From Mytilus galloprovincialis (lineage: Eukaryota): DNA of 64,000 nucleotides. Positions within the stretch are counted from its first letter, which is position 1. Each line of letters begins with the position of its first letter. Made by a program: the position numbers and the translations under genes. Where the stretch lies: NCBI RefSeq assembly GCF_965363235.1, contig NC_134847.1, positions 69,846,935-69,910,934 of the forward strand. The letters run 5' to 3'. The notes under the pieces are model-generated. The model made no database searches and was not told the DNA's origin. It saw nothing but the letters and a program-made list of their open reading frames with translations. Of this stretch, positions 22,700 through 54,682 are shown in pieces.

Positions 22700-22990
22700 T
22701 CAACAAACATACTACATATTAGTCTGACTCGGAGGGCTCCCTGTGTTGTAATTGAAACTATTTCATAAAGCATTAACCATCAAGCATAATACATATTCGT
22801 CTAACTAGAAGGGCTTTCTGTGTTGTAATTTCGATACTATTTCATATAGCAATGACCATCAAGCATAATACATATTAGTCTGACTAGGAGGGCTTTCTGT
22901 GTTGTAATTTTGATACTATTTCATATAGCAATGACCATCAAGCATGATACATATTAGTCTGACTAGGAGGGCTTTCTGTGTTGTAATTTT
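22700..22990. repeat. Minisatellite of about 66 bp units, about 4 copies (about 2.5 copies at the paralogous site 50890-51050)
   Basis: The unit 'attagtctgactaggagggctttctgtgttgtaattttgatactatttcatatagcaatgaccatcaagcat.atacat' repeats head-to-tail. Confidence 0.8.
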
Positions 22991-23184
22991 GATACTATTA
23001 ATATAGCAATGACCGTATGATTCGACTTGTAAATTTAATTATATGCCTTATTCTGACTCAAAGCGGAGAGTATAATTGTGAAACGTCGAAGGCATACAAG
23101 CTTTTCTGTATAAAAAATTTCTGACTGGTTTGGTAATTAAATATCGATCAAACAATTTAAATTTTTAATGTGTTTATTCCATAT

Positions 23185-25842: not shown

Positions 25843-25866
25843 TTTTTTTTTTTTTTTTTTTTTTTT
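25843..25866. repeat. T24 homopolymer, present in duplication copy A only (the copy B site at about 56390 reads ggttttcttttaaaggaggagg)
   Basis: It is directly visible. Confidence 0.9.
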
Positions 25867-28800
25867 GGACGGATTTAGGAACTGAATAAAGAGTATTTTG
25901 ACCTGATAGATATTTTGCCCCAAATAAAAGACAGGATAACTGAATAATTTGCATTTGGATAACATTGGGTTTTTTTCATCGTAAACCTGTGCAATTTGCT
26001 TATTTACTAAATATTTTGTTTAGTATAAGTTCTTTTTCAAAATCTGTCAACATTCTTGTACAACTGACCTTTGAGGAAAATACGGATGTGTCATTATTTG
26101 AATTTTGGTGTCCTGCTTAGTGCCACGTAAGTTCTACTATTTGCAATAGACAAATAAGGAATAGGTCCGTTGATTTTCTTGAAAATTATGCTCAAAGTTC
26201 TAACATGACCTCAAACTGCATGACCCAACCCCAAAAATACCAAATATCGTATCAATATAAACATCTTTACAATTACACAAATCTTACAAATTTCTGTTTA
26301 GATAGAAAATATAATGTAGATTGATATAACAACACCTTTAGTTGTTGGTTTGATTTCAGATTTATCTTAATATTTTAAATGTATTTGATATTTGTTTGCT
26401 ATAATATAACTCATGAAACTCCTTTTGTATCTAGAAAGTGCCTATACTAAACTATAACTCTACCTATCATAATAATAATGGCTGCATAAATAAATAACTC
26501 TGTAATGGAATCAATATTTTTTTACATTTAAGTAGGTAGCGGTAAAATGTATTTTTTAACTGGTCCACTTGGAAACGGGATTTTTAATAAAGATTACAAT
26601 GGAACATCAAACACGTTCATATCTATATCATTATAATCAATGTTTTGCATTTACAGTGTTTGTGATGTCGAAATATCAGTGGTATTAACAAATGCCACAA
26701 AGTGTGAAGACGTCCACTACAAAACGATCAACTACAATACAATAGATCAATTTTTTATGCAGTTGGCATTCTTCTAATGTAGTTAATAATATCGTTTTAT
26801 AAGTGACAAAAGGCAAAAGTCAAGATCGTACGTTTAACATGTTATAACTTAAGTAATAAGAAAAGAGTAAATAAACTCATCATAGATACAAGGATTAAAA
26901 TTTTGTATTAACGCCTGACGCGCGTTTCGTCTACAAAAGATTCATCAGTGACTCTCGAATAAAAAAATTGAAAACGCCAAATAAAGTATGAAGTTTAAAA
27001 GCATTGAGGACCAACAATTCGTTAAAGTTTTTCCCAAATACAGTTAAGGTTATCTATTCTTGAGGTAGAAAAGCCTTAATATTAAATACTCAAAGTTTTG
27101 TAAACAGATAATTTATAATAATAACCATATCAATCATAATTTATGTCAACACTTAAGTGCTGACTCCTTGGCTGGTGATACCATCGGGGACTAAAAACTC
27201 CACCGATTTTTTAATAACTAAGGAACATGTCATCATTTGTCACTACAGAACATTGATATATCAACATAAATGCTATTGTAATGTAGTTGACAAATTTATG
27301 TTATCTCATTTTGCATTTGAAATTATCTTCGCACAAGACTGCATATTAAAGACTTTGTTCATATAAACTACTGTGAGTTCAGTAGAATATTAAAAATATA
27401 GTTTAACTAATACAAATGAACTATGAATGGATTTTGAAAACGACCCATTATTTATTTATTTGAAACAAAATATGGAAAGATGATTTCAATGCATATTATG
27501 TTTCTCCTTTTATATTCCCTTATTATTAAAATATAAATCCCCGAAAGAAAAGTTAATATGATTTTAGAACTTGATGCTTCAGAAATTTAACATTAAAGAT
27601 CAGAAATTTTGTTCTTCTGGTCCTACATAATTAAGGCTATGTTTTCATGCGAAAAATTTCATGTCAAAAGAAAAATGTTAACTTTACATTGGCAGCAGAG
27701 CTGGAAAGATCTCTAAAACAAGATACCGCTGTAAAGTCCATGTGAAACATTGTTACATTTTACTGATTGTTTTCAGGTTCTGTCCTCTATTATTAATATA
27801 AGTCATTATCGTTTGACGACTTTGTCAATAAAAATGTTGATTATTCAAAAGCATTAGACAGATAAAGAATACCTTCATATAAGTTGTTTATGGAATTCAT
27901 TAACGCAGAACTAGACGACCATAAGAATTTGGGGACACCAAAATTAATAAGATAAATAAGATAAATTCTGTCATAAAGATATTATGAAATGCATGTAAGC
28001 AACATACACATTTTCCATCTTAGCATTTAAACAATCACAAACATATCAAAGAATAAACCCACCTGATGTTGAAATGTAGTAAATAAAAATTTGAAATATG
28101 TAACATATTCTTTATTCTCAATATCATTTCGCAATGAATAAATCTGAATATAAAATACACAACAAAGTTTTGCAGTTTATTTCTAATGATATAATCTTTA
28201 TATGCTCTACAATTTCGACGTGTGGTGAACGACTCTTACAAAAAGAACCGCATGATAAAGAGTTTTGGAAAAGTGCCATCACGACATTTATCTTCACTTA
28301 CAATAAGTATAAATCTTTCCTTTTCGAGACAGTGAACCAAAAAAAAAAATGAATATCTTCTGTACTTTCGTTTAACCTATATCTTTGATATTATATATAC
28401 ACCATACTTACTGGAACACTACAGAATTCAATTTAACTTAGGCTCTTATCATTCATAATTTGGAAGGAGGATTTCGGTTGTTTTTTTTAGGAGAATGACT
28501 TCAATAAATACTAACTAACAAACAGGAACAGGTTATGTGTTTTGATATTCAATGATGTATTTCTCCCCTCAACCTTTTATGTGTAAGGGGGCTCGCGGGT
28601 CTAAATCAATTTTTTTTTTCTAATATAGGATTTCGCTATATTTTTCTATAAATGAACTTTATCTTATACCTAAAAGAAAAATAAAATAAAAAATTGGGGT
28701 CACCGTTCATTTACGCTCACAATCTGCATTCGAAAGAAGCATACATTTTTTGTAAAGGTACTTTTTTTCTGTAGAACTATTAGCAGAAATAGAGGTAATA

Positions 28801-29388: not shown

Positions 29389-29718
29389 ATGATACCACAA
29401 AGTGCAAACATGTTTATAGTTAAATACGTTTTATTCTTTATAAATGTTTTCAGTCCGGCTCAAACTGAATCAAACATTTTTCGCATTCACCCAGATCGGC
29501 TTGATTCTAAACTGCAAGGATACATTTATTTAACATTTGAGAAAATATCACCGAGGTTGTGCTTTAACAAATGTATACGACGACCTAACTGTCACTCGTA
29601 CAACTATAATAAATCTTTACTGACATGTGAACTAAATAACAAGCCAAAATCTGTATCTTCTGATGATTTCTTTTTTCAGAATGGATATGTGTATGTTGAA
29701 ATTGAACAGTACAGAGGG
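29389..29718 (+). CDS. Exon 1 of secreted PAN/apple-EGF-mucin gene: signal peptide plus PAN/apple-like domain
   Basis: The ORF-track ORF 29389-29739 has alternative Met codons at 29389 and 29410, followed by a hydrophobic N-terminus (FIVKYVLFFINVFSPA|QTE) typical of a signal peptide. A 4-Cys motif follows (LCFNKCIRRPNCHSYNYNKSLLTCEL) that matches the PAN/apple core pattern C-x3-C-x5-C...C-x-L. The ORF track shows the frame running 6 codons past a consensus GTATGT donor placed directly after codon GGG at 29718, so the exon ends in phase 0 and is phase-compatible with exon 2. Confidence 0.6.
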
Positions 29719-34291: not shown

Positions 34292-34403
34292 AACATTTTA
34301 GGACCCTCTACTGGATCCATGTCATAGAAAACCCTGCAAGTCAGCAGAGATTTGTGAAATAAAACTGGATGGAAACACATTTTGTGTAAAAGATAATAAG
34401 TAC
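34292..34403 (+). CDS. Exon 2: small EGF-like cysteine module (DPCHRKPCKSAEICEIKLDGNTFCVKDNKYIIK)
   Basis: The 112 nt exon is preceded by a polypyrimidine tract and ttttAG acceptor and is followed by a GTAAAT donor. It opens in phase 0 with a DPC..KPC..C..C spacing typical of the N-terminal half of an EGF-like domain. It ends with 1 extra nt, which exactly complements the phase-2 start of the mucin exon at 36418. The coordinates were hand-counted (±1). Confidence 0.5.
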
Positions 34404-35579
34404 ATAATTAAAGGTAAATGTATCGTTGATTGTCGGAAATATCTGAAATATTTGTAAGATTTCTGTTTTGTGTATGATTAAATAGATATTTTGTTGTAAT
34501 GAAAATTAAAAAGGAGCGGGAAAGTTAGGTGGAATCATTCTTTCCTTGATTTAAATGCATACTAAACAAAAGAGTTAATGTAATTATCTTTTTTAAGAAA
34601 CAATGACTATAAAGGTAAAAGGGTTTTGAAATAAAGACAATACGATTAGTAATTTTAATATTTAATGATAAAGTTTTATCATTGTAATTTAATGATTATA
34701 CATTTTGGCATAGTATTGGCTAACCTATTATGTTCAATAGGAACAAACATTTAATGTATTTGCCAAATCAAACAGAGAATTAAAACAAAGGAGTAGATTC
34801 AATTGGACCCTCTTTTGGCCCCAAAATATAGCAGTTTTACAAAATTGTTAAAATGTAGACTTTTAGTTATTAATTGGATTGTAAATTTCTTCTGCTACAT
34901 AAACATGTGCTGTTTTTGACATTACAATGCACATATATCGGGTATAAACATCATTAAGTCATGCTAAATTACTGAAATCTTAACTTTTTTTGTTTTTTAG
35001 TTAAATTTTAGAAGGTTTTCGTCTTAAATGAAAGTGGCCGCATTTGTGTTCATTCTTAATATTGAAATGTAAGTTGTATTTGATGATAATACATAACATA
35101 TATAAACGTTTGGGATGAACACTGATGCTGCCACTTTCATTTAAGACGAAATCCTTTGATAAAAACTATCAGAAAAGTGACATTTTTGTGCATAGATTTT
35201 TCCTATTTAAGCTTGAATTGTTTGAGCGTTTTTAATGAGTAAATAGGTCGAAATAGTTCACATATACTTATTGAATCAACTGAAATAGATACTTAAGTTT
35301 TAAAAAGTGTACAAAATCTTTCGTCAGATGAACCTGAAATTTGAGGCTAAAACCAGCCCTCATCGGACCTACTCCTTTGATAATTTCATCCATGGAATAT
35401 ACATAAATTGTAATTTCAATCAATCTGAATTCCGAAATGACATGTTGCCTGCAAACGCCGTGTCTGAAATGTGATGAAATTCCAATAACGTTGTGAACGC
35501 CTTTGACACATCTTGATGCAGCATGATGCAACAAAAAAAGTAGTGTGAGGAAATAAACCGAACTCCAATCAAATTCAAA

Positions 35580-35991: not shown

Positions 35992-36287
35992 GGGAGCTAC
36001 CATTTGATTTTTATGGGGGCTAGGATGAAATTTGAAAAAAATAGGCAGAACAGGAGTTTTGAGTAAAAAAAAAAGGCAGGATGTGACACTTGCAAAAAAA
36101 AAAGTCAGGACGACAATTTAGGTAAAAAAAAGTCAGGATAAACTTTAAAAAAAAGGCAGGACCGATTAGAGTGAAAACTAAAGAGGCAGGACAGAGATTA
36201 CAGCTAACAAAAAATGCAGGACAAAATGTTTCATCCTAGCACCCCCCCCCCCCCCCCCCCCCCCATAAAAATCAAATGGTAGCTCCC
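35992..36287. mobile_element. 296 bp MITE-like hairpin element in intron 2, with 28 bp perfect TIRs, an internal 22-25 bp tandem repeat, a C23 tract and TAA TSD
   Basis: The left TIR is GGGAGCTACCATTTGATTTTTATGGGGG (35992-36019) and the right (36260-36287) is its exact inverse complement. It is flanked by TAA on both sides. The interior holds seven (A)6-10 GGCAGGA/GTCAGGA repeats followed by a poly-C run at 36242-36264. Confidence 0.7.
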
Positions 36288-36417: not shown

Positions 36418-39400
36418 AACCAACTTCCACTACAAAATCGGTTAAAACAACAACAAACGACAATACAAACATTCGAAATACTGGCACTTCAGAAGCGCAA
36501 ACAAAAACAATGGCCTCCATTTCTCAGACGATTGGCACAGCCACAAAAAGCACAGAACTTACCTCCATATATATTAATGTTGGCACAACCACTAAGACTG
36601 TTGTTACTACCGCCGAGAAACATTTGACCAAAACCGAATTTGAAACTACCGTATATGACAATCATGGACCAACATCTGACGAAACATCTCACACAGCAGC
36701 AACGAGATTGCTAAAAACCACCGCTAATCAAGTTTCGAATTATACGATCACTAATGATAAACCGAAGTTGACGACAGAAACTGTGACTGGCTCAGAAACC
36801 CGAACAAAAACACCGGTGCACGTCTCTATCACTCATACTATTGGCACTACAACATATGATACGACTATGACAGGCACATCAACTAGTGATGCTACTATCA
36901 CATCCGCAAAAACCATCACACCTACCTCTTTATCGAATACTGTTGGAACTACAACGAACACAGTTGGTACTACCGAAGAACACCCGTTGATTAACACCAA
37001 AGGTACAACTGCTGTCTCTGAGACTCATGGACCATCATCTAACGAAAAAACTCACGCATCAGCAACAATCTTGTTAGAGACAGCCTCGGATCAAAGATCG
37101 ATCTTTCCAATTACTAATAATAAACCGACAGAAATGAAAGACACTAAAACTAGATCAGCAACACCACCATTCATTTCTAACACTCAGACGATTGGCACTG
37201 TAACAGACGTAGCACCTAGTGAAGCTACAGCTGCAAAAACTACAAAGCTAACCTCTATGTCTAAGATTATTACAACTACCGCTGAAATTACATTGACAAA
37301 CCCCGAGAGTACAACTGTCTCCGAGACTCACACAGCAGCATCAAAATTACTGAAGACAACTGCTGGTCAATCTTCGAACTTTCCGACGTCTTATGATAAA
37401 CAGGAGGAAACGACGGACACTATAGCTAGCTCAGTAACGCCAACGAAAACACCAGCATACATGTCTCACACTCAAACGATTGGCTTTACAACAGACGATA
37501 GTACTTTGACAGACGCAATAACTGATGAAGATACGGTCACAGCCGAAGATTCCGTAAAACGCAGTTCTATATCGTATAATGTTGGCACTACCACTCACAC
37601 TGTTGGTACTTCTGCCGAAAAGCCGATAAACACCGAAGGTACACCTGTTGTTGAGAATCATGGGTCAAAATCTGAAGAAACAACTCACACAGCAGCATCA
37701 ACCTTGATAAAGACAACCATTGATCAATATTCAACCTTTCCACATACTAATCTAAAACATAAAGAGATGACAGATACTATATCTAGCTCATCAACGCCAA
37801 CGAAAACACCGGCATCCATGTCTAATACTATGACGATTGGCACTAGAACAGATGACACAATTATGACAGTCGCAACAACTGATGAAGCTTCTGTCACAGC
37901 TGCAAAAATCATTGAAATTACCTCGATATCAAATACTGTTGGCGTTACCACTAGGACTGTTGGTACTACCGGAGAAAACTCGTTGATGAGCATAGAAGGT
38001 CCAACTACTATCTCTGAAACTCACGAATCATCATCTGACAAAACAGATGACACAGCAGCAACAATATTGTTAGGGACAAGCGATGTCGCCTGGGTCTCTC
38101 TGACTACTTCTTATAATCCGAATGAAATGCTAGACACTATGGCCAGCTCAAAACCGACAACTAAAACACCGGCATTAATGTCAAACAGTCAAACCATTAG
38201 CATTAAAACTGATAACATGACTGTGACAGCTACTGACACAACACAAAAAAACATCGAACTTACCTCCATATCTTATACTGTTGGTATTTCCACTAACACT
38301 ATCGGTTCTCAGTTGCCAAAAACCAATGGTACAACTGTCTCTGAGATAGATAGGCCATCATTTCACAAAACCAATAACACAACCTTGCTAGAAACTACTG
38401 CTGATCAAGCTTCGCATTCTCCAAGTACTGATGATCAAACAACGAAAACTTGGGACTCAATAGCGAGCACAGCAAATACAGAGAAAACACCGGCATTCAT
38501 TTCTGACACTGAGGCTATTGGCACTATAACAAATGATACGACTGTGACACACACAACAACTGATGAAGATACTGTCACAACTGCCAATATAACCTCAATA
38601 TCTACTTATATTGCCATTACTAATAAGACTGTTGGCATTATTACAGAAAAACGGTTAACAGACACAAAAGGTACAATTTCTGCCTCCGGGACTATTGGAC
38701 CAACATCTGACGAAACCACTCATACCGCAGTCACATTGCTAGGGACCACCGCTGTTCAATTGACAGTCTCTCCAATTACTAATGATAAACCGACAGAAAC
38801 CATAGCTAGCTTGGAAACGCCAACAAAAAAGTCTACGTCCATATCTGACACTCATACGATCGGCTTAACAACAGATGATACGACGATGACAGACACAACA
38901 ACTAGTGAAGCTACTGTATCAGCCGCAAAAAATATCCAACTTACCTCGATATCTAATACTGCTGGCATAACCACAAGCATCATTGGTACTACCACCGATA
39001 AACATTTGACAAACGCAGATGGAACAACTACTCTTTCTGAGACTTATGAACCAACATATGACGAAACAACTTACACAGCACCAACAACTTTGCTAAAGAC
39101 TACCACTGATACAGCTTCGGTCACTTCGAATACTAATGACAAATTGACAGAAAATACGGAAACCAAAGCTAGATCAGAAACGCCAACAAAAACGTTTACA
39201 CCCATATCTAACACCCAGACGATCAGCTTAACAACAGATGATACTACAATGACAGACACAACATCTAGTGACGCTACTGACACAGTCACAAAAACTATCC
39301 AACTTACCTCGATATCTAATACTGCTGGCATAACCACTAGGACCATTGGTACTATCACCGATAAATATTTGACAAACACAGAAGGTACAACTACTGTTTC

Positions 39401-42400
39401 TAAGACTCACGGACCAAAATCTTTCGAAACAACTTACATGGCAGTAACAACCCTGCTAAATACCACCGCTGGTCAAACTACGAACTCTTCGATTAAGAAT
39501 AATAAACCAATGGAAATGACAGACACTATAGCTAGCTATGCAACTCCAAGGATAACATCGGCATTCAATTCCGACACGCAGACGATTGGCACTACAACAG
39601 ATGATATAACGATGGTCGACACAACAACTAGTGACGCTACTAATACAGCTGCAAAAACTATCAAACTCACCTCAATATCAAATTATGCTGGCACTTTTTC
39701 AAACACTGTTGGGACTACCACAGAAAAACATTTGACCAACACAGAAAGTACAACTACTGTATCGCAAAGTTACAGATCAACATCTGACGAAACCACACAC
39801 ACGACACCTACAATCTTCCTAAAGACAACTGCTGGTCAATCTACGGTCCGTCCAAATACTAACGATAAACCGACGGAAACGACGGAAACCATAGCTAGCG
39901 CAGAAACGCCAACAAAAACGACTACATCTATATCCAACACTCAGACGAACGTCTTTACAACAGATGATATAACGATGGTAGACACAACAACTAGTGACGC
40001 TACAGCTGCAAAAACTATCGAACTTCCCTCTATATCAAATTATGTTGGCACTACCTCAAAAATTGTTGGTACTACGACAGAAAAACATTTGAAAAACACA
40101 GAAGGTACAACAATTTTCTCTCAGCCTCACGGACCAAAATCTTACGATATTACACACACAGCACCTACAATCTTGTTAAAGACCACTGCTGGTCAATCTA
40201 CGGTCTCTCCGAATGATAAACCGACGGAAACGACGGAAACCATACCTAGCTCAGAAACGCCAACAAAAACGAATGAATCCATTTATGACACTCAGACAAT
40301 CGTCTTTACACCAGATGATACTACGATGATAGACACAACAACTAGTGAAGCTACTGTAACAGCTTCAAAAACCATCGAACTTACCTCGATATATAATACT
40401 GCTGGCATAACCCCAAGCACCATTGGTACTACCACCGATAAACATTTGACAAACGCAGATGGAACAATTACTCTTTCTGAGACTCATGGACCAACATCTG
40501 ACAAAACAACTTACACAGCACCAACAACTCTGCTAAAGACTACCACTGATACAGCTTTGGTCACTTCGCTTACTAATGAAAAATTGACAGAAAATATGGA
40601 AACCAAAGCTAGCTCGGAAACGCCAACAAAAACGTCTACACCCATATCTAACACCCAGACGATCGGCTTAACAACAGATGATACTACAATGACAGACACA
40701 ACATCTAGTGACGCTATTGAGACAGTCACAAAAACTATCCAACTTACCTCGATATCTAATACTGCTGGCATAACCACAAACACCATTGGTACTACCACCG
40801 ATAAATATTTGACAATCGCAGATGGAACAATTACTCTTTCTAAGACTCATGGACCAACATCTGACAAAACAACTTACACAGCACCAACAACTCTGCTAAA
40901 GACTACCACTGATACAGCTTTGGTCACTTCGAATTCTAATGACAAATTGACAGAAAATATGGAAATCAAAGCTACCTCGGAAACGCCAACAAAAACGTCT
41001 ACACCCATATCTAACACCCAGACAATCGGCTTAACAACAGATGATACTACAATGACAACCACAACATCTAGTGACGCTACTGACACAGTCATAAAAGTTA
41101 TCCAACTTACCTCGATATCTAATACTGCTGGCATAACCATTAGGACCATTGGTACTATCACCGATAAATATTTGACAAACGCAGATGGAACAATTACTCT
41201 TTCTGAGACTCATGGACCAACATCTGACAAATCAACTTACACAGCACCAACAACTCTGCTAAAGACTACCACTGATACAGCTTTTGTCACTTCAATTACT
41301 AATGACAAATTGACAGAAAATATGGAAATCAAAGCTAGCTCGGAAACGCCAACAAAAACGTCTACACCCATATCTAACACCCAGACGATCGGCTTAACAA
41401 CAGATGATACTACAATGACAGACACAACTTCTAGTGACGCTACTGACACAGTCACAAAAACTATCCAACTTACCTCGATATCTAATACTGCTGGCATAAC
41501 CACTAGGACCATTGGTACTATCACCGATAAATATTTGACAAACACAGAAGGTACAACTACTGTTTCTAAGACTCACGGACCATCATCTGACGAAACAACT
41601 TACATGGCAGTAACAACCCTGCTAAATACCACCGCTGGTCAAACTACGAACTCTTCGATTGATAATAATAAACCAATGGAAATGACAGACACTTTAGCTA
41701 GCTTAGCAACTCCAAGGATAACATCGGCATTCAATTCCGACAGGCAGACGATTGACACTACAAGAGATGATAGAACGATGGTCGACACAACAACTAGTGA
41801 CGCTACTAATACAGCTGCAAAAACTATCCAACTCACCTCAATATCAAATTATACTGGCACTTTTTCAAACACTGTTGGGACTACCACAGAAAAACAATTG
41901 ACCAAAACAGAAGGTACAACCACTGTATCGCAACGTCACAGAGCAACATCTGACGAAACCACACACGCGACACCTACAATCTTCCTAAAGACAACTGCTG
42001 GTCAATCTACGGTCCGTCCAAATATTAATGATAAACCGACGGAAACGACGGAAACCATAGCTAGCGCAAAAACGCCAACAAAAACGGCTACATTTATATC
42101 CAACACTCAGACGAACGTCTTTACAACAGATGATATAACGATGGTAGACACAACAACTAGTGACGCTACAGCTGCAAAAACTATCGAACTTCCCTCTATA
42201 TCAAATTATGCTGGCACTTTTTCAAACACTGTTGGGACTACCACAGAAAAACAATTGACCAAAACAGAAGGTGCAACTACTGTATCGCAACGTCACAGAG
42301 CAACATCTGACGAAACCACACACGCGACACCTACAATCTTCCTAAAGACAACTGCTGGTCAATCTACGGTCCGTCCAAATACTAATGATAAACCGACGGA

Positions 42401-45400
42401 AACCATAGCTAGCGCAGAAACGCCAACAAAAACGTCTACATCTATATCCGACACTCAGACGAACGTCTTTACAACAGATGATATAACGATGGTAGACACA
42501 ACAACTAGTGACGCTACAGCTGCAAAAACTATCGAACTTCCCTCTATATCAAATTATGCTGGCACTTTTTCAAACACTGTTGGTACTACCACAGAAAAAC
42601 AATTGACCAAAACAGAAGGTACAACTACTGTATCGCAACGTCACAGAGCAACATCTGACGAAACCACACACGCGACACCTACAATCTTCCTAAAGACAAC
42701 TGCTGGTCAATCTACGGTCCGTCCAAATACTAATAATAAAACGACGGAAACGACGGAAACCATACCTAGCTCAGAAATGCCAACAAAAACGAATGAATCC
42801 ATTTATGAAACACATACAATCGTCTTTACACCAGATGATACTACGATGATAGACACAACAACTAGTGAAGCTAGTGTAACAACTTCAAAAACCATCGAAC
42901 TTACCTCGATATATAATACTGCTGGCATAACCCTAAGCACCATTGGTACTACCACCGATAAACATTTGACAAACGCAGATGGAACAATTACTCTTTCTGA
43001 GACTCATGGACCAACATCTGACAAAACAACTTACACAGCACCAACAACTCTGCTAAAGACTACCACTGATACAGATTTGGTCACTTCGATTACTAATGAA
43101 AAATTGACAGAAAATATGGAAACCAAAGCTAGCTCGGAAACGCCAACAAAAACGTCTACACCCATATCTAACACCCAGACGATCGGCTTAACAACAGATG
43201 ATACTACAATGACAGACACAACATCTAGTGACGCTACTGACACAGTCACAAAAACTATCCAACTTACCTCGATATCTAATACTGCTTGCATAACCACAAA
43301 CACCATTGGTACTACCACCGATAAACATTTGACAAACGCAGATGGAACAATTACTCTTTCTGAGACTCATGGACCAACATCTGACAAAACAACTTACACA
43401 GCACCAACAACTCTGCTAAAGACTACCACTGATACAGCTTTGGTCACTTCGAATTCTAATGACAAATTGACAGAAAATATGGAAATCAAAGCTACCTCGG
43501 AAACGCCAACAAAAACGTCTACACCCATATCTAACACCCAGACAATCGGCTTAACAACAGATGATACTACAATGACAGCCACAACATCTAGTGACGCTAC
43601 TGACACAGTCATAAAAGCTATCCAACTTACCTCGATATCTAATACTGCTGGCATAACCACTAGGACCATTGGTACTATCACCGATAAATATTTGACAAAC
43701 GCAGATGGAACAATTACTCTTTCTGATACTCATGGACCAACATCTGACAAAACAACTTACACAGCACCAACAACTCTGCTAAAGACTACCACTGGTACAG
43801 CTTTGGTCACTTCGATTACTAATGAAAAATTGACAGAAAATATGGAAACCAAAGCTAGCTCGGAAACGCCAACAAAAACGTCTACATCCATATCTAACAC
43901 CCAGACGATCAGCTTAACAACAGATGATACTACAATGACAGACACAACATCTAGTAACGCTACTGACACAGTCACAAAATCTATCCAACTTACCTCGATA
44001 TCTAATACTGCTGGCATAACCACAAACACCATTGGTACTACCACCGATAAACTTTTGACAAACGCAGATGGAACAATTACTCTTTCTGAGACTCATGGAC
44101 CAACATCTGACAAAACAACTTACACAGCACCAACAACTCTGCTAAAGACTACCACTGATACAGCTTTGGTCACTTCGATTACTAATGACAAATTGACAGA
44201 AAATATGGAAATCAAAGCTACCTCGGAAACGCCAACAAAAACGTCTACACCCATATATAACACCCAGACGATCGGCTTAACAACAGATGATACTACAATG
44301 ACAGACACAACTTCTAGTGACGCTACTGACACAGTCACAAAAACTATCCAACTTACCTCGATATCTAATACTGCTGGCATAACCACTGGGACCATTGGTA
44401 CTATCACCGATAAATATTTGACAAACACAGAAGGTACAACTACTGTTTCTAAGACTCACGGACCATCATCTGACGAAACAACTTACATGGCAGTAACAAC
44501 CCTGCTAAATACCACCGCTGGTCAAACTACGAACTCTTCGATTGATAATAATAAACCAATGGAAATGACAGACACTATAGCTAGCTTAGCAACTCCAAGG
44601 ATAACATCGGCATTCAATTCCAACACGCAGACGATTGGCACTACAACAGATGATATAACGATGGTCGATACAGCAACTAGTGACGCTACTAATACAGCTG
44701 CAAAAACTATCAAATTCAGCTCAATATCAAATTATGCTGGCACTTTTTCAAACACTGTTGGGACTACCACAGAAAAACAATTGACCAAAACAGAAGGTAC
44801 AACTACTGTATCGCAACGTCACGGAGCAACATCTGACGAAACCACACACACGACACCTACAATCTCCCTAAAGACAACTGGTGGTCAATCTACGGTCTCT
44901 CCAAATACTAATGATAAACCGACGGAAACGACGGAAACCATAGCTAGCGCAGAAACGCCAACAAAAACGACTACATCTATATCCGACACTCAGACGAACG
45001 TCTTTACAACAGATGTTATAACGATGGTAGACACAACAACTAGTGACGCTACAGCTGTAAAAACTATCGAACTTACCTCTATATCAAATTATGTTGGCAC
45101 TACCTCAAAAACTGTTGGTACTACGACAGAAAAACCTTTGAAAAACACAGAAGGTACAACAATTGTCTCTCAGCCTCACGGACCAAAATCTTACGAAATT
45201 ACACACACATCACCTACAATCTTGTTAAAGACCACTGTTGGTCAATCTACGGTCTCTCCGAATGATAAACCGACGGAATTGACGGAAACCATACCTAGCT
45301 CAGAAACGCCAACAAAAACGAATGAAGCCATTTATGACACTCAGACAATCGTCTTTACACCAGATGATACTACGATGATAGACACAACAACTAGTGAAGC

Positions 45401-45695
45401 TACTGTAACAGCTGCAAAAACCATCGAACTTACCTCGATATATAATACTGCTGGCATAACCACAAGCACCATTGGTACTACCACCGATAAACATTTGACA
45501 AACACAGATGGAACAACTACTCTTTCTGAGACTCATGGACCAACATACGACGAAACAACTTCGGTCACTTCGATTACTAATGATAAATTGACGGAAAATA
45601 CGGAAGCCATAGCTATCTCGGAAACGCCAACAAAAACGACTACAGCCATATCTAACACTTGTCTTTCAGTTTTTGGTGTTGTGTTTTGTATATGA
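36418..45695 (+). CDS. Exon 3: giant mucin-like Thr/Ser-rich tandem-repeat exon with hydrophobic C-terminal tail
   Basis: A 9.2 kb open frame (ORF track 36510-45695) remains open upstream to a ttttcAG acceptor at 36416-36417. About 3090 codons are dominated by T, S, P, K and D, with a recurring 121-aa unit (TPTKTSTPISNTQTIGLTTDDTTMTDTTSSDATDTVTKTIQLTSISNTAGITTRTIGTITDKYLTNADGTITLSETHGPTSDKTTYTAPTTLLKTTTDTALVTS...). The repeat body has essentially no Cys. The exon terminates ...AISNTCLSVFGVVFCI*. Confidence 0.8.
36800..45650 (+). repeat. Coding tandem repeat array, 363 bp unit (variants 354-369 bp), about 25 copies, with 2.2-2.9 kb higher-order repeats
   Basis: Reverse-strand ORF artefacts recur at exactly 363 nt spacing (40511/40874/41237 and 43031/43394/43757/44120). 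Near-identical blocks of about 240 aa recur three times (starting near aa 940, 1660 and 2620). Units at the edges of the array are more divergent than the central ones. Confidence 0.85.
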
Positions 45696-46726
45696 CTGAC
45701 GTTGTTTATCATCTTAATAACGTGTTATATTATTCTTTTATTTTTCTTTATTAATATTACTTTTACTGTTAAGTCTGTTTTTTAGATATCCTTTTGACGA
45801 AACTTTGTGCTTATGTATCCCATCATACTTTGAACGACAAAATTATTTTATGATGTGACTCTGTACCTATGTTTCTTGTCATACTTTGAATGACAAAATT
45901 ATTTTATTTATCAATATTACTTTAAATTTACTGTTATGTTAACACGAATAATTCAGTCGTTATATTCCGCTTACTACATTACAAGTAGGAGAGATCGATT
46001 ACGGGGAGGGACTGAATTATTCGGGTTACTGTTACGTCTGTTTTTTTGTGATATACATTTGACGTGACTCTGTATTTATGTATCCCGTCATACTTTTAAC
46101 CACACTATTATTCTATTTATTATTATTACTCTTACTGTTAAGTCTGTATTGTTATATCCATTTTACGTGACTGTATTTATGTATCCCGTCATACTTTGAA
46201 CGACAAAATTATTTCATTTCTACCTGTGCGAATTTCATACGCGCAATTTTACACCAGTACTTAAAACCCTCCATCCTTTATGGTTGCATTTTACATAAAT
46301 TAATAAAATCGTATAATATAAGCAAAATGAGGATGTTAAATTTGATGTATGCCTTTTTGTGCTTCTTCGTTACATTTGTTGTTTTTATAGTGATTAATTA
46401 AGATGATAACACAATGTTGACTGCTGTACCCCATTTTTGACATTTTTACCTATTGTGTCTGTTTGTTTTATTCACGCATCGGTGACAATATAATGGAATT
46501 TGATGCGACTGTCATACAAATGAGAGGTTTAGCTAGCTATAAAACCAGTTTCAATACACCATTTTCTACATTTTAAAATGCCTGTACCAAGTCAGGAATA
46601 GGACAGTTCTTTTCCATTCGTTTTTGATACGTTTTGTTATTTGATTTTGCTATGTGATTATGGACTTTCCGAATTGGTTTTCCTCTAAGTTCCGTATTTT
46701 TGTCATTTTACTTTTTACACTCAGAC

Positions 46727-47290
46727 GATCGGCTTTACAACAGATTATACTTCGATGACAGACAAAACAACTACCACCGATAAACATTTGACAAACACAG
46801 ATGAAACAACTACTCTTTCTGAGACTCATGGACCAACATCTGACGAAACAACTTACACGGCAGCAACAACCCTGTTAAAGACAACCGCTGATCCAGCTTC
46901 GGTCAATTCGATTGCTAATGATAAATTGACGGAAAATACGGAAATCATAGCTAACTTTGAAACGCCAAGAAAAACGTCTACACCCATATCTGACACGCAG
47001 ACGATCGGCTTCACAACAGACGATACTACGATGACAAACACAACTAGTAGATAAGCTACTGTTACAGCTGCAAAAACCATCCAACTTACCTCGATGTCTT
47101 ATACTGCTAGCATAGCCACAAGGATCATTGGCACAATCACCGATAAATATTTCACAAACACAGAAGGTACAACTACTGTTTCTCAGCCTCACGGACAAAC
47201 ATCTGACGAAACCACACACACAGCAGCAACAAACCTGCTAAAGACCACCGCTGATCAAGCTTCGGTCTCTCCGAGTACTAATGATTAACC
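46727..47290 (+). pseudogene. Degenerate relic of mucin repeat units about 1 kb downstream of the gene stop
   Basis: ORFs 46755-47054 and 47094-47288 translate to the same repeat consensus (TDKHLTNTDETTTLSETHGPTSDETTYTAATTLLKTTADPASV...ISDTQTIGFTTDDTTMT) but are interrupted by in-frame TAA stops (about 47052 and 47286). The relic begins mid-repeat after an acceptor-like sequence. Confidence 0.7.
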
Positions 47291-47952
47291 GACGGAAACG
47301 ACTTCGTTAATACCGTAAATTGGGAAATTTTGGCGTCGCGATATTTTGGCTGTTTTCTCTCAAAAATCATTTGTTTTATTTTGGTGTTTCGTTCAATTTA
47401 TATGTTTAATTTATTAGCAACAATAGTGATCAATTTATATGTGCTTCTATTAACCCGTTTATTGACAAAATATCATTGAATTTCTCAAACTAAAAACAAG
47501 ACAAAATTAACTTATGAAGGAATCAGATACGGATGCAATTGCAAATAATTCCATATATCGAAATAGAAATATGAAAAAAAGGAACATTAAAACAACTTTT
47601 TTATTAGATTATTTTTACAAAAATCATTTTAAAATTTAATCCTTATGCCTCTGGCAATAAGTTGAAGATAAAAGATTAGAAGAAGGTTTGATGTTCTAAT
47701 TGTCAATAACGACGTCTAATCAGTAATAGCCTGGCATATTCGTGACTTGTGTGAATATTTCATGTTTTGTTTTCTTAACGATTTAGGAAAATACAATTCA
47801 ATTCAATGTTTTATTAAAGTCTCATCTCTCAACAAGTACAATCAATCTTTATACATTGTAAAATAACACTAAATAAAATAAGAGCCATTCTATACAGAAT
47901 TATAAGAGACTATTAAAATGCATAGATATAATACACAATATGAAATAAAATA

Positions 47953-49871
47953 CTATTTACAATAAATAAAATTTCTACGTCTTTTAAAAATCAAATGACA
48001 GGTTTTGGCACACACACGTATCATATTTACATCTGAGAATAAAAACACTAACTTTTGATTATCATCTAAAGTATTAAAATTATCATTAAAAGTTTCAGCA
48101 ACATAATATAAATGGTTTCTAAAATCGTCATACAGAGGACATTTTAATAAAACATGCGCTTCATCGTCAATAAAAACGTCACATATATGGCACATTCTAT
48201 TTTCTAAAACAATATTTTCATATCTCCCTGTTTCAATTCTTAGGGGAGCAACACCATATCTAAATTTGGCGAAAGCACTTCTGTGACTGAAGGGTAAAGC
48301 TATTTTACAATATTCCTCCGATTCAAAATTTTCCTTAAACAGTCTGTAAGTTCGTAGCTTATTGCCACCTCTGTCGGATATAGATTTATCTAAATGTAAA
48401 ACACCATGCCAATTATCGACATGTTTTTCGTGTAATTTTGACATAATTTTTTTTATAACATAGTTAGTGTCCATATTTTCAGGACACGATAAATGACTTA
48501 AATTTAGTTTACTATTAGCCCACTTGTGAACTTTTGCATTTAACCGATTTAAGCTCATGTTATTTAATCTACACCACAAACGAATAATACTTTTCCACTG
48601 CTTATCAAAAATAGGTGTTATACCTAAGTCTCCAGTAACTGCAGCATTTGGTGCATATTTTCCTACTCCGAGAAAAAATCTACAAGCCCTAGTATGTATG
48701 GAGTTAATACAAGAATATGTTTTTACACCCCATATACCTGCTCCATATTCTATTATAGGACAAACCAAACTTTCATATAATTTTACAAATACATCGAAAC
48801 AAACACCACCTAAAAGTTTACATTTGGCTATTACCAACCCTAAAGCTCTATTTGCCGAAGATGCAACGGCTTTTGCAGTAACATTATAGTCTAAATGCTC
48901 GTTTAAAACGAGACCAAGATAAGTATAATTACTAGAAAAATTAATAGTATGACCATTACAATTAAAAATTACATCAGATCTAGGTATAGATGGCGGTCTA
49001 AAATGTACAACGTTACTCTTGTTTACATTAATTGTCATACATTGTTTTCACACCATGTAGATAAAGCATTTAACAGAAGTTGAAGCTCTTTTTCATCGTT
49101 TGCTATAATTACAACGTCATCAGCATATAATAAAATACACAGTTTTTCATCACCTATTTCTATTCCGCAGTCAAAGGACTTAAGAAATGTAACTAAATCA
49201 TTAATATACAAGTTGAACAAAATGGGCGACAAGGGACATCCTTGTTTCAAGCCACAGTTAACATCAAACCAGTCTGTGAAATGACCGTTTATTCTTACAG
49301 AACATAAAACATTTGTATAAATTGACTTAATAGCAGAACAAAAAGGCTGTGCAACACCCATGTTATTCAATTTATACCACAAAATATCCCTTTGTATAGT
49401 GTCGTAAGCCTTTTTAAAATCTATAAAGGCGCAAAATGTTGATTTACGAAGTTTTTTTCTTACATCTATCAAATTAGTAAGACTAGATAATTGGTCAATT
49501 GTACTACTTTGTTGCCGGAAACCATTCTGCTCGTCAGCCAGTACATTGTTATCATCTACCCATTGAGCTAATCTATCGCTCAGTATATTACAATACAATT
49601 TGTAAGACACGGCTGCCAGGGCGATCCCTCTATAACAAAGGGGGTCTCTCGGGTCCGACATGTTAGATTTAGGAATAGGATTTATAATAATTCTATTCCA
49701 TAAATCTGGAACATTACCATATCTAAAACAAATATCTTTGGTATCACCTCGGAGGTTCTTACGAGTTACCGGTCCTTGGTATGGTGACATGAAATTTTGA
49801 ACGAGAAAAAAATGTGAAAAAGGTGAAAAACATCTAATTTTGAGATATGTAAAAGATTGAAAATAGTCCAA
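47953..49871 (-). mobile_element. 5'-truncated non-LTR (LINE) retrotransposon, CR1/L2-like RT, minus strand
   Basis: ORF 49035-49871 carries RT domains (FRQQSSTIDQL, CAFIDFKKAYDTI, GLKQGCPLSPILFNLYINDL, LLYADDVVII). The abutting ORF 47953-49038 carries the RT thumb and a C-terminal Cys/His motif (CHICDVFIDDEAHVLLKCPLY). The two ORFs overlap by 4 nt, indicating a frameshift. No endonuclease domain lies upstream of the RT, which indicates 5' truncation. Confidence 0.75.
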
Positions 49872-51214
49872 AAGTTATATATAGAATTTATAAGAATCCA
49901 CAAATAGTAAATTCCACTACGCGATTGAATGATTTTGACGTTTATGGTTCAACGTATTTTGTAATTCATAATAGAAATATATCATAATGACATAAACTGG
50001 AACAATATCATACTGACGGGATCTTTTGAAGTACAGAGTCACGTTATAAGAACCAAAGAAATACAAAAAGTCGCATATACAAAGCACGACACCAAAAATT
50101 GAAAGACAATACAAACACATTGACGAGATGTACAAGTACCGAGCCACGCCAAACGGATATCACATAAAACCATTCAACAGTAAAAGTAATATTAATAATA
50201 GAACAAAGACAAATGAAAGAACTATAAAACACGTTGTTAAGATGATAAACAACATCAGTACGCAGAATCTATACATCAAGACCATCGTGTATTATTTGTG
50301 AAGTTGATACGGAATATTTATCAACAAGGTCTTGGTACCTTCCGATGAACTTTTTTAGAAAAAGGACGAGACGTTCTTTGACATACCCCTGGTTCATTAA
50401 CTTTCTACTCAGACACTGATGACGTTTTACAAAGTCTGAGTAGGAGCTGCAAGCTCTTTAATATCGAATAAGTTGGGAAATATATATCACATATGCAGGT
50501 AAAGTTGGTATATTGCTACTAAGGTGGGGGAAATTTATAATTTCAAAATTAAAATCGTCTCGTTTGTAATAGATTCTGGTACTGAGATGACTGTTTAAGT
50601 CAAATTCGAGATATAAGTCTAAAAATGAGGCGGAGGAAGCCGTGTCTGTTGTTTCTTTAATATCTAGTTCTGGGGGATATATTTATGGAACCTAATCAGA
50701 AAAGTTCGGATTGTTTATGGAAAGAACATCATCAATATATCTGAAAGTGAAATTAAATAATCTGGCAATTTTACACAAATACCAAATTGAAATCTACGCT
50801 GGCTATGGTTTGAAACCGTATTTGAAATTAAGTAGGGCGTCTATATAAAGTTAGGTCTTAATGGATTTATACAGAATCAAATGTGAATTATCAACGAACA
50901 TACTACATATTAGTCTGACTCGGAGGGCTCCCTGTGTTGTAATTTTGAAACTATTTCATAAAGCATTAACCATCAAGCATAATACATATTAGTCTAACTA
51001 GAAGGGCTTTCTGTGTTGTAATTTTGATACTATTAATATAGCAATGACCATATGATCGACTTGTAAATTTAATTGTATGCCTTATTCTGACTCAAAGCGG
51101 AGAGTATAATTGTGAAACGTCGAAGGCATACAAGCTATTCTGTTTAAAAAATGTCTAACTGGTTTGGTATTTAAATATCGATCAAACAATTTAAATTTTT
51201 AATGTGTTTATTCC

Positions 51215-52527
51215 ATATATATATATATATGTGTGTAACACTCCCAAACGTGTCCTTCCCCCCAAACGTGTCCGATTCCCCCATACGTGTCTATTCTCAC
51301 CAAACGTGTCCATAATATTCAATATTCCCCAAACGTGTCCGATTTCAGAACCCCAAACGTGCCCGATACTATTGTTATTCGCCCAAACGTGTCCACTTTT
51401 AAACGCCAGAACGTCTCGTGTCTTTTGCGCTAATACATGTCCTAAACGCGACATCAATAACGTTCACGGCAGTTCTATGATGGGGACACAGGTGATGAAG
51501 TGGTAATTTATTAACATTAACTTGTTCAATGCCGGTTGTTAATGATTATCATTACTGAAATTTAACATATGCATTAACTTTTGACTTAATTTGCTTATTG
51601 TCCAGTTGCAAGTATTTCATACTCATTTAAAGCGAACATACAAATAATTCTAGTATAGTTGAATTAATCGTTTACTATGTAAATTCTTTTATACTAATAA
51701 GCTCCGATGATGCCTTTTATATTAATCAGAATATTCCACGGTGGGCTCTCAGTCGAATTGACCTCCCATCTTTTTTTAACAGTTCTAATTTTAATAAATT
51801 TTAGGTTACGAGCGTCACTAAAGACACACGAACAAGAGAAATAACGTCCAGTGCCAAATATTTCATTCGTTTTTTGAACGATATCATATTAACGATATAT
51901 ACTGTAAATAGGTTATATTATCAAACCGGGAATTTAAAATTGGGCATTAATTTTTACGGTTATTTGGGATGACCACTAGTTTGGATTTTAATCTAAAGAA
52001 AAATAAATGCGAGTAAAGACCGATTTGTTTATGACTTCAGTAAGAAACTACTTCAATGTCTGTTATGTAATATAGAGGCCGTTTCAAATAAAAGTTGTAG
52101 AAATTAAAAAAAAAATTTGCCTTCCAAAATACAAAGTATGGCACATTATAACGAGTGAAATGCTACAAACATTTTAATGGGCATAGAAAAAGAATTTAAG
52201 TAATTTATTTTGATCTTTTAATGAAATAGTAAAAGATCATAAAATGAGTATACAATGATAATAATAAAAAAAAAACACAAATAACCTACGTTTTTATAAT
52301 ATGGACACGAATGATAGTTTCAGTAAAATAAAAAAAAGCTTGGTATCGACACGTTTGGGGGATTGGACACGACTGGGGGTTTATTAAAAAATGGACACGT
52401 TTGAGCCTTTATACAAATGACACGCTTTGGCGCCCTTTGACAACTAGACATGTCTTTGCAGTTCAGTGACGTCGATGTGGACACGTTTGGGGGAATCAGA
52501 CACGTTTGGGGGGTTACATATATACGA
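51215..52527. mobile_element. Second copy of the CCAAACGTGTCC-array element (within segmental duplication B)
   Basis: It has the same termini and 12-mer arrays as 23185-24500. Confidence 0.6.
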
Positions 52528-54400
52528 TACTTTTAGAGTTTTTGGACATTATTAATGGACAGACATTTACTTGTGAAATATTAAAAAATGAATGATATTC
52601 AAAATTTAAACACTAACATGTCAAGAGAGGCAACTCAATTCTTTTTTTATATAAATTGTATAAGTTATAAACAGAAAAGATCTACTTAATCTCAGACACC
52701 AATAGCTGCGGATATGAACAAAACTAAATCCGTTTTCCACTATGTTCACAGGGTCTGGGTAGGGCAGGGTTGATAACATACTAAGATAATTGTTTAGAGA
52801 TGTGTGGCTGGGTAAAAATCACCCCCTTCGTATCTTGAAGTGTTGCGAAAGATGCAAAGACTATTTACAAATCTAACTCACAACTTGTGTTGACAGAGGG
52901 GACAAACAGTACTTGAAGGTCGTTGTCTAGGTGTGGTGGTTTCAAATCGAAGATAATATTATTGTGAAGAGTAAAATTATAAAGGTTCTTCTATTCAGTA
53001 ATTGTGAGCATCAAAGAATCTCACAGGGATGAAGCATTCACTAAAAAAAAGATAATTTTGCCTTGAATTCTATCTTTATCTATAAGTTATAAGCTTAACT
53101 ACATTTATAAGACAACTTTAGGTTACATGCCAAGAAAATAATACAGACAACTTAAAATAATCAATTTAGAAAAGACAAATTGTTCTGCATTCCTGATCTG
53201 ATATTACACAGTAGTGATACAAATTACTGGGTTAGTATATATAGAAAAAAGTAAAATTATAAAAATACTGAAATCCGAGGAAAATTCAAAGCATAGAAAA
53301 AGAATTTAAGTAATTTATTTAATTTATTTTGATCTTTTAATGAAATAGTAAAAGATCGTAAAATGAGTATACAATGATAATAATAAAAAAAAACCACAAA
53401 TAACCTACGTTTTTATAATATGAACACGAATGATAGTTCAAGTAAAATAAAAAAAAAGCTTGGTATGGACACGTTTGGGGGATTGGACACGACTGGGGGT
53501 TTATTAAAAAATGGACACGTTTGAGCCTTTATACAAATGACACGCTTTGGCGCCCTTTGACAACTAGACATGTCTTTGCAGTTCAGTGACGTCGATGTGG
53601 ACACGTTTGGGGGAATCAGACACGTTTGGGGGGTTACATATATACGATACTTTTAGAGTTTTTGGACATTATTAATGGACAGACATTTACTTGTGAAATA
53701 TTAAAAAATGAATGATATTCAAAATTTAAACACTAACATGTCAAGAGAGGCAACTCAATTCTTTTTTTATATAAATTGTATAAGTTATAAACAGAAAAGA
53801 TCTACTTAATCTCAGACACCAATAGCTGCGGATATGAACAAAACTAAATCCGTTTTCCACTATGTTCACAGGGTCTGGGTAGGGCAGGGTTGATAACATA
53901 CTAAGATAATTGTTTAGAGATGTGTGGCTGGGTAAAAATCACCCCCTTCGTATCTTGAAGTGTTGCGAAAGATGCAAAGACTATTTACAAATCTAACACA
54001 CAACTTGTGTTGACAGAGGGGACAAACAGTACTTGAAGGTCGTTGTCTAGGTGTGGTGGTTTCAAATCGAAGATAATATTATTGTGAAGAGTAAAATTAT
54101 AAAGGTTCTTCTATTCAGTAATTGTGAGCATCAAAGAATCTCACAGGGATGAAGCATTCACTAAAAAAAGATAATTTTGCCTTGAATTCTATCTTTATCT
54201 ATAAGTTATAAGCTTAACTACATTTATAAGAGAACTTTAGGTTACATGCCAAGAAAATAATACAGACAACTTAAAATAATCTATTTAGAAAAGACAAATT
54301 GTTCTGCATTCCTGATCTGATATTACAAAGTTGTGATACAAATTACTGGGTTAGTATATATAGAAAAAAGTAAAATTATAAAAATACTGAAATCCGAGGA
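52183..54400 (+). repeat. Local tandem duplication, 2 copies of about 1.1 kb (52183-53290 and 53291-54400), present only in copy B
   Basis: The sequence from 'atagaaaaagaatttaagtaattta' to 'ggaaaattcaaagc' occurs twice head-to-tail, so the right GGACACGTTTGG array appears at both 52340-52520 and 53460-53650. Copy A has one unit. Confidence 0.8.
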
Positions 54401-54682
54401 AAATTCAAAGCGGAAAGTCCCTAATCAAATGGCAAAATCAAAAGCTCAAACACATCAAACGAATGGACAACTTCCTAACTTTGTTCAGGCATTTTCTTAG
54501 GTAGAAAATGTGGGATTAAACCTTGTTTTATAGCTTGCTAAATGCCTCACTTAACGCGCGTAGACTTTGGGCTTTTTGTTTCGTTAGCCATTCACATTGA
54601 CAAATATCATTAAAAAATAATAATTCATTTATACATTTCTAGGCTATCACATGAACAATCTGTGAAATCTTAACAAGCCTTA

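Follow-up and report, generated by a model that had tools for sequence, protein, structure and literature searches.

The stretch of DNA analysed here, referred to as the window, comprises 64,000 nucleotides of the mussel Mytilus galloprovincialis (contig NC_134847.1, positions 69,846,935 to 69,910,934 of the forward strand) and includes a giant exon, hereafter exon 3, that consists largely of tandem copies of a 121-codon unit. Exon 3 is very likely the last of three coding exons in a Mytilus gene, the predicted product of which has 3232 residues and would be secreted, with a signal peptide, a PAN/Apple domain, and a 4-Cys module preceding a tail of ~3090 residues. The repeat array in this tail has grown by unequal recombination and been truncated by an insertion, and the tail itself would form a mucin-like stalk. 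An initial annotation, made from the sequence of the window, had described the exon as a mucin exon with a higher-order repeat organization; its observations were confirmed in part, and its interpretation was supported.

The gene model rests on the reading frame, on an alignment with a related protein, and on the domains predicted from the spliced product. One open reading frame (ORF) over the region spans 3061 codons on the forward strand (36510-45695), in a frame that is open from 36393; over 9.3 kb the coding frame of exon 3 has 0 stops vs 92-367 in the other five frames. The M. galloprovincialis protein P0002, named 'Apple domain-containing protein', aligns to the window by tblastn as three exons, with identities of 99% at 29410-29718, 95% at 34302-34412, and 96% at the start of the array. 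When the three exons (Table 1) are spliced, the coding sequence remains in frame over 9699 nt and encodes 3232 aa, with canonical splice sites and compatible exon phases. The translation of exon 1 matches the Pfam family PAN_1 (PF00024) at 29.2 bits, above the gathering cutoff of 21.4, and the PAN cysteines C51, C55, C61, and C73 are invariant among relatives. PAN/Apple domains are protein- or carbohydrate-binding modules. The closest solved structure found for this head by PDB sequence search is the apple-domain microneme antigen L2 (2yil), a weak match (E 0.0076), and an AlphaFold2 model of the N-terminal 141 residues reached a mean predicted local distance difference test (pLDDT) score of 44 with a 5-sequence alignment. 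The signal peptide of exon 1 was predicted by eye as a hydrophobic N-terminal sequence (MFIVKYVLFFINVFSPA/QT). The 4-Cys module of exon 2 (DPLLDPCHRKPCKSAEICEIKLDGNTFCVKD...) likewise looks EGF-like by eye, and a Pfam search with it gave no match, EGF included. A poly-C run of ~24 bases (36247-36265) lies in intron 2, ~150 bp upstream of the exon 3 acceptor.

The repeating unit is 363 bp long. Tandem Repeats Finder (TRF) returned this period with 18.8 copies between 38792 and 45561, and in the autocorrelation of the DNA a lag of 363 is the highest (0.59), followed by 2883, 726, and 2520. A profile hidden Markov model (HMM) of the unit, built from 18 core units, detected 25 full units and 1 partial 121-aa unit between 36561 and 45665, in agreement with the ~25 recurrences initially counted. 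The array had been taken to begin at 36800; the exon begins at 36418 and the first full unit at 36561. The stretch of divergent units after the acceptor, put at roughly four in the initial annotation, comprises seven (Table 1). These are followed by a core of 19 units (8-26) that fall into four subtypes in the order ABCD, AAABCC(C/D), AAAABCD, A', as determined from an identity matrix and clustering. DNA identity is 93-99% within subtypes, 71-78% for most between-subtype pairs, and 82-84% between C and D. The B-type units begin at 39306, 41472, and 44355, with spacings (2166 and 2883 bp) that bear out the higher-order spacing of 2.2-2.9 kb previously reported; higher-order periodicity is found at 2166, 2520, and 2883 bp, and TRF, autocorrelation, and a diagonal scan show that the 363-bp lattice and the higher-order super-lattice are both present. 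The claim that blocks of six to eight units recur three times with only a handful of substitutions did not hold. No such colinear blocks are present; the higher-order copies differ in content (ABCD, AAABCC(C/D), and AAAABCD), and the colinear blocks that do exist extend over 1.1-1.8 kb at 95.3-97.7% identity with 30-78 mismatches. The motif THGP(T/S)SD, said to be conserved in the repeat, is missing from subtype C, which carries RHRATSD in its place. A set of near-invariant hydrophobic or Gly positions (I3, G15, L22, and L51) is kept even by the old units, in-frame indels are tolerated in many units, and a search for a sub-repeat inside the 121-aa unit gave no significant result (score 62 vs 51.6 +/- 6.8 for shuffles).

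Table 1. Exons, repeat units, higher-order copies, and 3' features of the gene, with positions given in the window; the last four rows list ungapped matches within the array from the diagonal scan.
Feature	Positions	Strand	Description
Exon 1	29410..29718	+	Begins the coding sequence with the start codon; predicted signal peptide and PAN/Apple domain; donor GTATGT after it, phase 0
Exon 2	34302..34413	+	37-residue 4-Cys module; acceptor ttttag, donor G/gtaaat, phase 1
Exon 3	36418..45695	+	Giant Thr/Ser-rich repeat exon including TGA stop; preceded by acceptor tctctttttcag
Units 1-7	36561..38942	+	Old, position-specific, divergent; 62-78% DNA identity to every other unit
Higher-order copy 1	38943..40382	+	Units 8-11, A B C D (identity matrix and clustering)
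Higher-order copy 2	40383..42902	+	Units 12-18, A A A B C C C/D
Unit 18	42540..42902	+	Recombinant C/D chimera
Higher-order copy 3	42903..45431	+	Units 19-25, A A A A B C D
Unit 26	45432..45659	+	Partial A-type unit, breaks after ...ISNT
Subtype A			Units 8, 12-14, 19-22, 26; 93-99% DNA identity between full units, partial unit 26 88-91%
Subtype B			Units 9, 15, 23; 96-97% DNA identity
Subtype C			Units 10, 16, 17, 24; 96-97% DNA identity
Subtype D			Units 11, 25; 97% DNA identity
Insertion, ~1.06 kb	45660..46716		Read as transposon-derived; dispersed repeats; ACAC at both flanks
Relic, ~1.6 units (A-B pair)	46717..47315	+	In-frame stops at ~47052 and ~47287
Ungapped match, lag 2883			1833 bp (longest), 95.7% identity, 78 mismatches
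Ungapped match, lag 5049			1565 bp, 96.0% identity, 63 mismatches
Ungapped match, lag 2520			1282 bp, 97.7% identity, 30 mismatches
Ungapped match, lag 2166			1112 bp, 95.3% identity, 52 mismatches

The organization of the core carries traces of how the array grew. Unit 18 is informative in this respect: at the 55 sites that are diagnostic for C vs D, it has two D states at the (arbitrary) start of the unit, then a stretch of 34 C-like sites (33 C and 1 D), and then 19 consecutive D sites, with the switch from C to D falling between unit nucleotides 185 and 225. Judging by these sites, unit 18 is a crossover scar, left when a C unit and a D unit exchanged sequence out of register. Clustering paired U12 with U19, U13 with U20, U14 with U21, U15 with U23, U11 with U25, and U16 with U17, and this pairing of units indicates block duplication followed by single-unit gains. 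Moreover, the best protein match of core units 8-25 lies in their own array (84-96% identity vs 60-72% for the M. trossulus, M. edulis, and M. galloprovincialis relatives), and units 1-7 find their best matches (54-69%) at other loci or in other species, at identities equal to or higher than those within their own array. These comparisons point to an amplification and homogenization that is specific to this array and that took place beside an old 5' flank. The course of events shown by these data starts from seven old, position-specific 5' units and a 3' part that was amplified within the locus from a four-unit A-B-C-D repeat, with out-of-register recombination and gene conversion then giving rise to the present order. 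Unequal exchange and concerted evolution of the array are thus supported as mechanisms, through the chimera, the best matches within the same array, and the block-wise correspondence of the higher-order copies, as had been proposed. The homogenized center and divergent edges from which this had been deduced were seen at the 5' edge; at the coding 3' edge, units 23-26 belong to the homogenized core.

The age of the amplification can be judged against allelic differences. In the M. galloprovincialis reference assembly, contig UYJE01005694.1 (L001) runs collinear with positions 19746-49722 of the window, and the two differ by substitution at 288 of 16772 non-coding sites (1.7%). The heterozygosity reported for M. 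galloprovincialis is 1.73% (PMC7653742). Since the divergence equals the heterozygosity of the species, the window is most likely another M. galloprovincialis haplotype than L001. The higher-order copies differ by 2.3-4.7%, above the allelic background of 1.7%, indicating that the amplification is not very recent; the adjective 'recent' in the initial annotation is therefore the part of that proposal that calls for moderation.

At its 3' end the array is interrupted. Homology to the unit ends at 45659; it reappears, still in register (TQTIGF...), from 46717, and the segment in between provides the last 12 codons of the gene (CLSVFGVVFCI) with the TGA stop at 45693-45695. Both strands of the window carry further partial copies of 46057-46717, and the majority end no more than 1-2 bases from 46716. 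The segment 45660-46716 is read as an insertion of transposon origin by which the array was truncated; the final 1.6 units were thereby separated from the array and decayed afterwards, and the stop codon now in use comes from the insertion. The relic units downstream align without gaps to the A-to-B junctions of the core at 84.6-85.6% DNA identity. As the relic is an A-B pair, subtypes A and B existed when the insertion occurred, and as the insertion is also found in L001, it is older than the split of these two haplotypes. The insertion was also considered as an intron, given a good acceptor at 46722 (cactcag/AC), and this was rejected as the main model as the left junction has no convincing donor and the units downstream have two in-frame stops. 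As to the insertion itself, the dispersed repeat is made up of its 3' 660 bp, with at least 5 partial copies in the window; internal direct repeats of ~74-115 bp are found at 45778-46217, and a 19-nt inverted repeat pairs 45940-45958 with 46010-46028.

Several observations weigh against the reading of the locus as a gene that encodes a secreted protein with a mucin-like stalk, some bearing on the integrity of the gene and others on the nature of the tail. First, with regard to integrity, the insertion truncates the array and provides the stop, leaving the gene with a transposon-derived 3' end; the L001 allele has a 10-bp deletion (window 37025-37034) that shifts the frame in unit 2, which is why the annotated P0002 ends at 356 aa; and the differences among young copies show no purifying selection, which leaves room for a dispensable or decaying gene. 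The deletion in L001 could represent a null allele or an assembly error. Among the unique within-subtype variants of the core units (38943-45431), 101 are non-synonymous and 11 are synonymous (omega ~3.1). Direct repeats (5.6 kb upstream and 8.4 kb downstream) also bracket the gene, and massive gene presence/absence variation has been reported in Mytilus (PMC7653742). All of these would suit a decaying or dispensable pseudogene, the frame of which is open only because the amplified units are young. Such a pseudogene is nevertheless improbable. The seven old units, which are 22-38% diverged, are fully open too, the splice sites and exon phases are intact, and the relic units that were cut off by the insertion did gain stops, showing what decay looks like at this locus. 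In addition, the ratio of non-synonymous to synonymous substitution rates (dN/dS) is 0.53-0.80, i.e., below 1, whether subtypes are compared with each other or old units with one another or with other units, a range that reflects weak purifying selection of the kind typical of low-complexity extracellular repeats, and the omega of ~3 among young copies exceeds the neutral value expected of a pseudogene.

The excess of non-synonymous changes among the young copies was evident in several ways. Non-synonymous changes make up 90.2% of the within-subtype variants vs 72.5% expected under neutrality from the local non-coding mutation spectrum (binomial p = 6e-6), and changes at codon positions 1, 2, and 3 number 47, 44, and 21, respectively (p = 0.003). 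Four-fold degenerate sites vary 3.6-fold less than positions 1 and 2 (2.5% vs 9.1%; Fisher p = 9e-5), and the deficit at position 3 is seen for each base type. The excess was not present in allelic differences between the window and L001 in units 1-8 (21 non-synonymous vs 10 synonymous), did not recur in the paralogue from M. edulis (40 non-synonymous vs 13 synonymous, codon positions 18:16:19), and had the same direction but was weaker and not significant when L001 core units were compared to their best window match (31 to 8). Two causes of an omega above 1 were examined and rejected: mutation bias, given that the local non-coding spectrum yields only 72.5% non-synonymous changes and that the bias is present in each base, and gene conversion, given that the differences brought in by conversion across subtypes would include a higher proportion of synonymous ones. 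Diversifying selection is a possible explanation of the excess. It is unlikely, though conceivable, that the amplified units evolve under such selection and that the gene encodes an individually variable, Mytilus-specific PAN-mucin, a polymorphic secreted glycoprotein in mucosal interaction with microbes or particles; if so, it would be a functional analogue of polymorphic mucins elsewhere.

Second, with regard to the nature of the tail, the composition of the exon 3 product is that of a mucin in some respects only. Its 3091 residues include 30.7% Thr, 9.9% Ser, 3.8% Pro, and 0.1% Cys. Ser and Thr together make up 40.6%, and reach at least 40% in 1786 of 2992 windows of 100 aa. When the thresholds of a Pro/Thr/Ser-rich (PTS) domain are applied to the same 100-aa windows (S+T >= 40% and P >= 5%, the latter following PTS-prediction rules), only 247 of 2992 qualify; with Pro at 3.8%, the tail is thus not a classical PTS domain. 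The tandem repeats do lie in one large exon (26 units, exon 3) of a predicted secreted protein, a further feature by which PTS domains are recognized. Furthermore, the unit is long (121 aa) and has conserved hydrophobic positions, leaving some room for a folded repeat, and the pLDDT of 44 obtained for a genuine PAN domain with a shallow alignment in the same pipeline means that the AlphaFold2 model of one unit (pLDDT 42, no secondary structure) is weak evidence of disorder. Pfam searches with the window N-terminus, the first units, units 1-6, the last 325 residues, and the homologues P0002 and P0007 matched only PAN_1, and a search with P0004, a homologue from M. trossulus, matched nothing. 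The domains of gel-forming mucins (VWD, C8, TIL, and the C-terminal cystine knot, CK) and the SEA domain of transmembrane mucins, the class to which the MUC3A- and MUC22-type names of the homologues refer, therefore have no Pfam match in the product, which ends 12 residues past the array with an 11-residue hydrophobic stretch derived from the insertion, too short for a transmembrane helix and tail. The predicted product is, on these grounds, mucin-like and outside the gel-forming and transmembrane mucin families. The description of a mucin-type exon is consistent with the high Thr and Ser content, the single giant exon, and the mucin-like names of homologues in RefSeq, with the qualification that canonical mucin-family domains are absent, and the near-absence of Cys that accompanied it is borne out, as the 3091 residues contain just 3 Cys and the non-repeat tail accounts for two. 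The sole Cys within the array is private to unit 20 (43266-43628), where a single GGC>TGC change results in G8C.

The length of the unit, its low Pro content, the persistence of I3, G15, L22, and L51 in the old units, and an AlphaFold2 confidence that is uninformative given the shallow alignment could also indicate that the 121-residue unit is a folded (e.g., beta-rich) adhesion domain, which would make the protein a repeat adhesin instead of one with a disordered mucin stalk. This is quite improbable in view of the lack of a Pfam family matching the repeats and of any meaningful PDB sequence match to the unit profile, an AlphaFold2 model without any secondary structure, 41% Ser+Thr, dN/dS of 0.5-0.8, and the tolerance of in-frame indels in many units. 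The architecture preferred here, and probably the one that the sequence encodes, is a binding head carried by an extended stalk in a secreted protein: the N-terminal PAN/Apple module, as the head, would bind proteins or glycans in the mucus of the mussel or in some other extracellular matrix, and the tail would be a densely O-glycosylated, mucin-like stalk.

The array in L001 is shorter than that of the window, with 11 full units and 1 partial unit vs 25 and 1. Its first eight units correspond to window units 1-8 (98-99.4% identity, units 1-7 being in this range), with a 9-bp in-frame deletion in unit 8 (window 39101-39109), and they are followed by units that are closest to window units 23, 24, 11/25, and 26. 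The deficit of 14 units amounts to 5049 bp and is the exact lag of the 1565-bp, 96% repeat in Table 1. L001 belongs to an assembly of Illumina contigs scaffolded with PacBio reads (PMC7653742). Either a real allele generated by unequal crossover or a collapse of the assembly would account for the deficit, and the length polymorphism and the short-read collapse forecast by the initial annotation are both consistent with it. The converse, namely that the copy number in the window is itself an assembly artefact, with a true array of ~12 units as in L001 and 14 more from mis-joined or haplotype-duplicated reads, draws on the count in L001 and on a difference of exactly one 5049-bp repeat lag, but is very improbable, as the extra units are not copies of flanking units, each having private variants in higher-order copies that are 2.3-4.7% apart, as they hold the only C/D chimera in a frame that stays open, as scaffolding of Illumina contigs with PacBio reads tends to collapse 1.5-kb repeats that are 96% identical, and as the L001 array itself contains frameshifts. 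The locus offers a concrete case in which a reference assembly holds less than half of an array.

Homologues of the repeat were found in Mytilus only. A four-unit query searched against 5.8 billion proteins matched only two proteins, both from Mytilus, and the unit profile searched against 1.84 billion cluster representatives matched four, again all from Mytilus, with no repeat homology outside of the genus among those representatives. A homology search with the N-terminal cassette added only one cluster. The four profile matches carry the source names 'mucin-3A-like' and 'mucin-22-like' (both RefSeq), 'salivary glue protein Sgs-3-like', or 'Apple domain-containing protein'. Paralogues and orthologues in the same family include VDH98076.1 from M. 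galloprovincialis ('Apple domain-containing protein', 1682 aa), CAG2205454.1 and XP_071133558.1 ('mucin-22-like') from M. edulis, and XP_063404517.1 ('mucin-3A-like', 2404 aa) from M. trossulus. A literature search found no paper that mentions the accessions of the family, nor any on this Mytilus family. The gene belongs to an uncharacterised, Mytilus-restricted PAN-mucin-like family, members of which have already been automatically annotated as mucin-like. Like the window gene, these relatives combine the signal-PAN-4-Cys N-terminus with the 121-aa unit and have 13-21 units, with old units on the 5' side and locally amplified units on the 3' side; they differ in that they represent other loci, with unit protein identities to the window of at most 72%. 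The allele in the window, with 26 units in an ABCD pattern, is absent from the protein collections searched. The M. trossulus protein P0004 has undergone its own, independent amplification, with units that are 97% alike, and in a paralogue that M. galloprovincialis shares with M. edulis (proteins P0007 and P0009) each unit matches its counterpart at 97-100%, with no large higher-order expansion.

Two further Mytilus sequences resemble parts of the gene. A paralogous locus in M. edulis (CAJPWZ010001022.1, 475-1203 and 4376-12323) has a segment like exon 1 that is 89% identical to that of the window and ~22 units; its array has a DNA identity of 73-81% to the window and, broken up by frameshifts, is annotated as three 'genes' (1488, 337, and 495 aa). 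In another M. edulis protein (XP_071136654.1), an F5/8 type C (discoidin) domain takes the place of the repeat array behind the signal-PAN-Cys cassette. The latter arrangement suggests that the PAN cassette is a mobile 'head' module and that exon shuffling took place in the lineage.

Comparisons with better-known systems place the gene among mucin-type and higher-order repeat arrays in general organization. The variable-number tandem repeat (VNTR) exons of vertebrate mucins are established to vary in length and to have higher-order substructure. They share with the window gene one very large, Thr/Ser-rich tandem-repeat exon, and are comparable to it in unequal exchange, in the difficulty of assembly from short reads, and in variable length, which in the window gene is putative. 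A mucin pangenome preprint (PMC13345508) documents that large mucin VNTR exons are not resolved by short reads. Unlike vertebrate MUC genes, the window gene lacks VWD/C8/TIL/CK or SEA and transmembrane regions, is low in Pro, has a unit of 121 aa, and begins with a PAN/Apple domain. LET-653 of Caenorhabditis elegans contains PAN/Apple domains, a mucin-like linker, and a ZP domain. Compared by architecture only, it is similar to the window gene in being secreted and in having an N-terminal PAN/Apple region and a Ser/Thr-rich mucin-like region, which in LET-653 resides in the apical extracellular matrix, and it differs in its ZP domain and in having no long higher-order array. The SmPoMuc proteins of Schistosoma mansoni are secreted, mucin-like, and variable between individuals, with tandem repeats diversified by recombination; unlike the window gene, with which they are not homologous, they have 9-aa repeats in repeated small exons and no PAN domain. 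Finally, alpha-satellite higher-order repeats (HORs) are an established example of arrays with this organization. The array in the window is like them in that its monomer subtypes are ~75% alike and corresponding monomers 94-99%, in its homogenized interior and older edge, and in its hybrid monomers, and is unlike them in being protein-coding and in frame, with three irregular higher-order copies only.

New to the present analysis are the full gene model, the map of higher-order copies with the crossover scar, the truncation by a transposon with its fossil units, the 14-unit discrepancy, and the non-synonymous excess. The product is a candidate structural or binding component of mussel mucus, and the locus is one on which studies of structural variation could focus. 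The array represents a textbook-type case of higher-order repeat evolution in a coding exon, and leaves the understanding of mucin-type arrays unchanged.

Repetitive sequences were also observed around the gene. Searching the whole window against Rfam gave no matches. Shortly downstream of the relic units, the reverse strand (47953-49871) contains a pair of neighbouring ORFs that encode 361 and 278 aa, and the second matches the reverse transcriptase family RVT_1 (E 5.5e-36); from its sequence, the pair looks like a retrotransposon fragment. Upstream of the gene, a 5.6-kb segment (21352-26972) recurs in direct orientation downstream, at 49854-58219, in six pieces of 89-97% identity spread over 8.4 kb. 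These repeats may be a large dispersed element or result from segmental duplication, and they might allow the entire locus to be deleted, a point of relevance to presence/absence variation in Mytilus.

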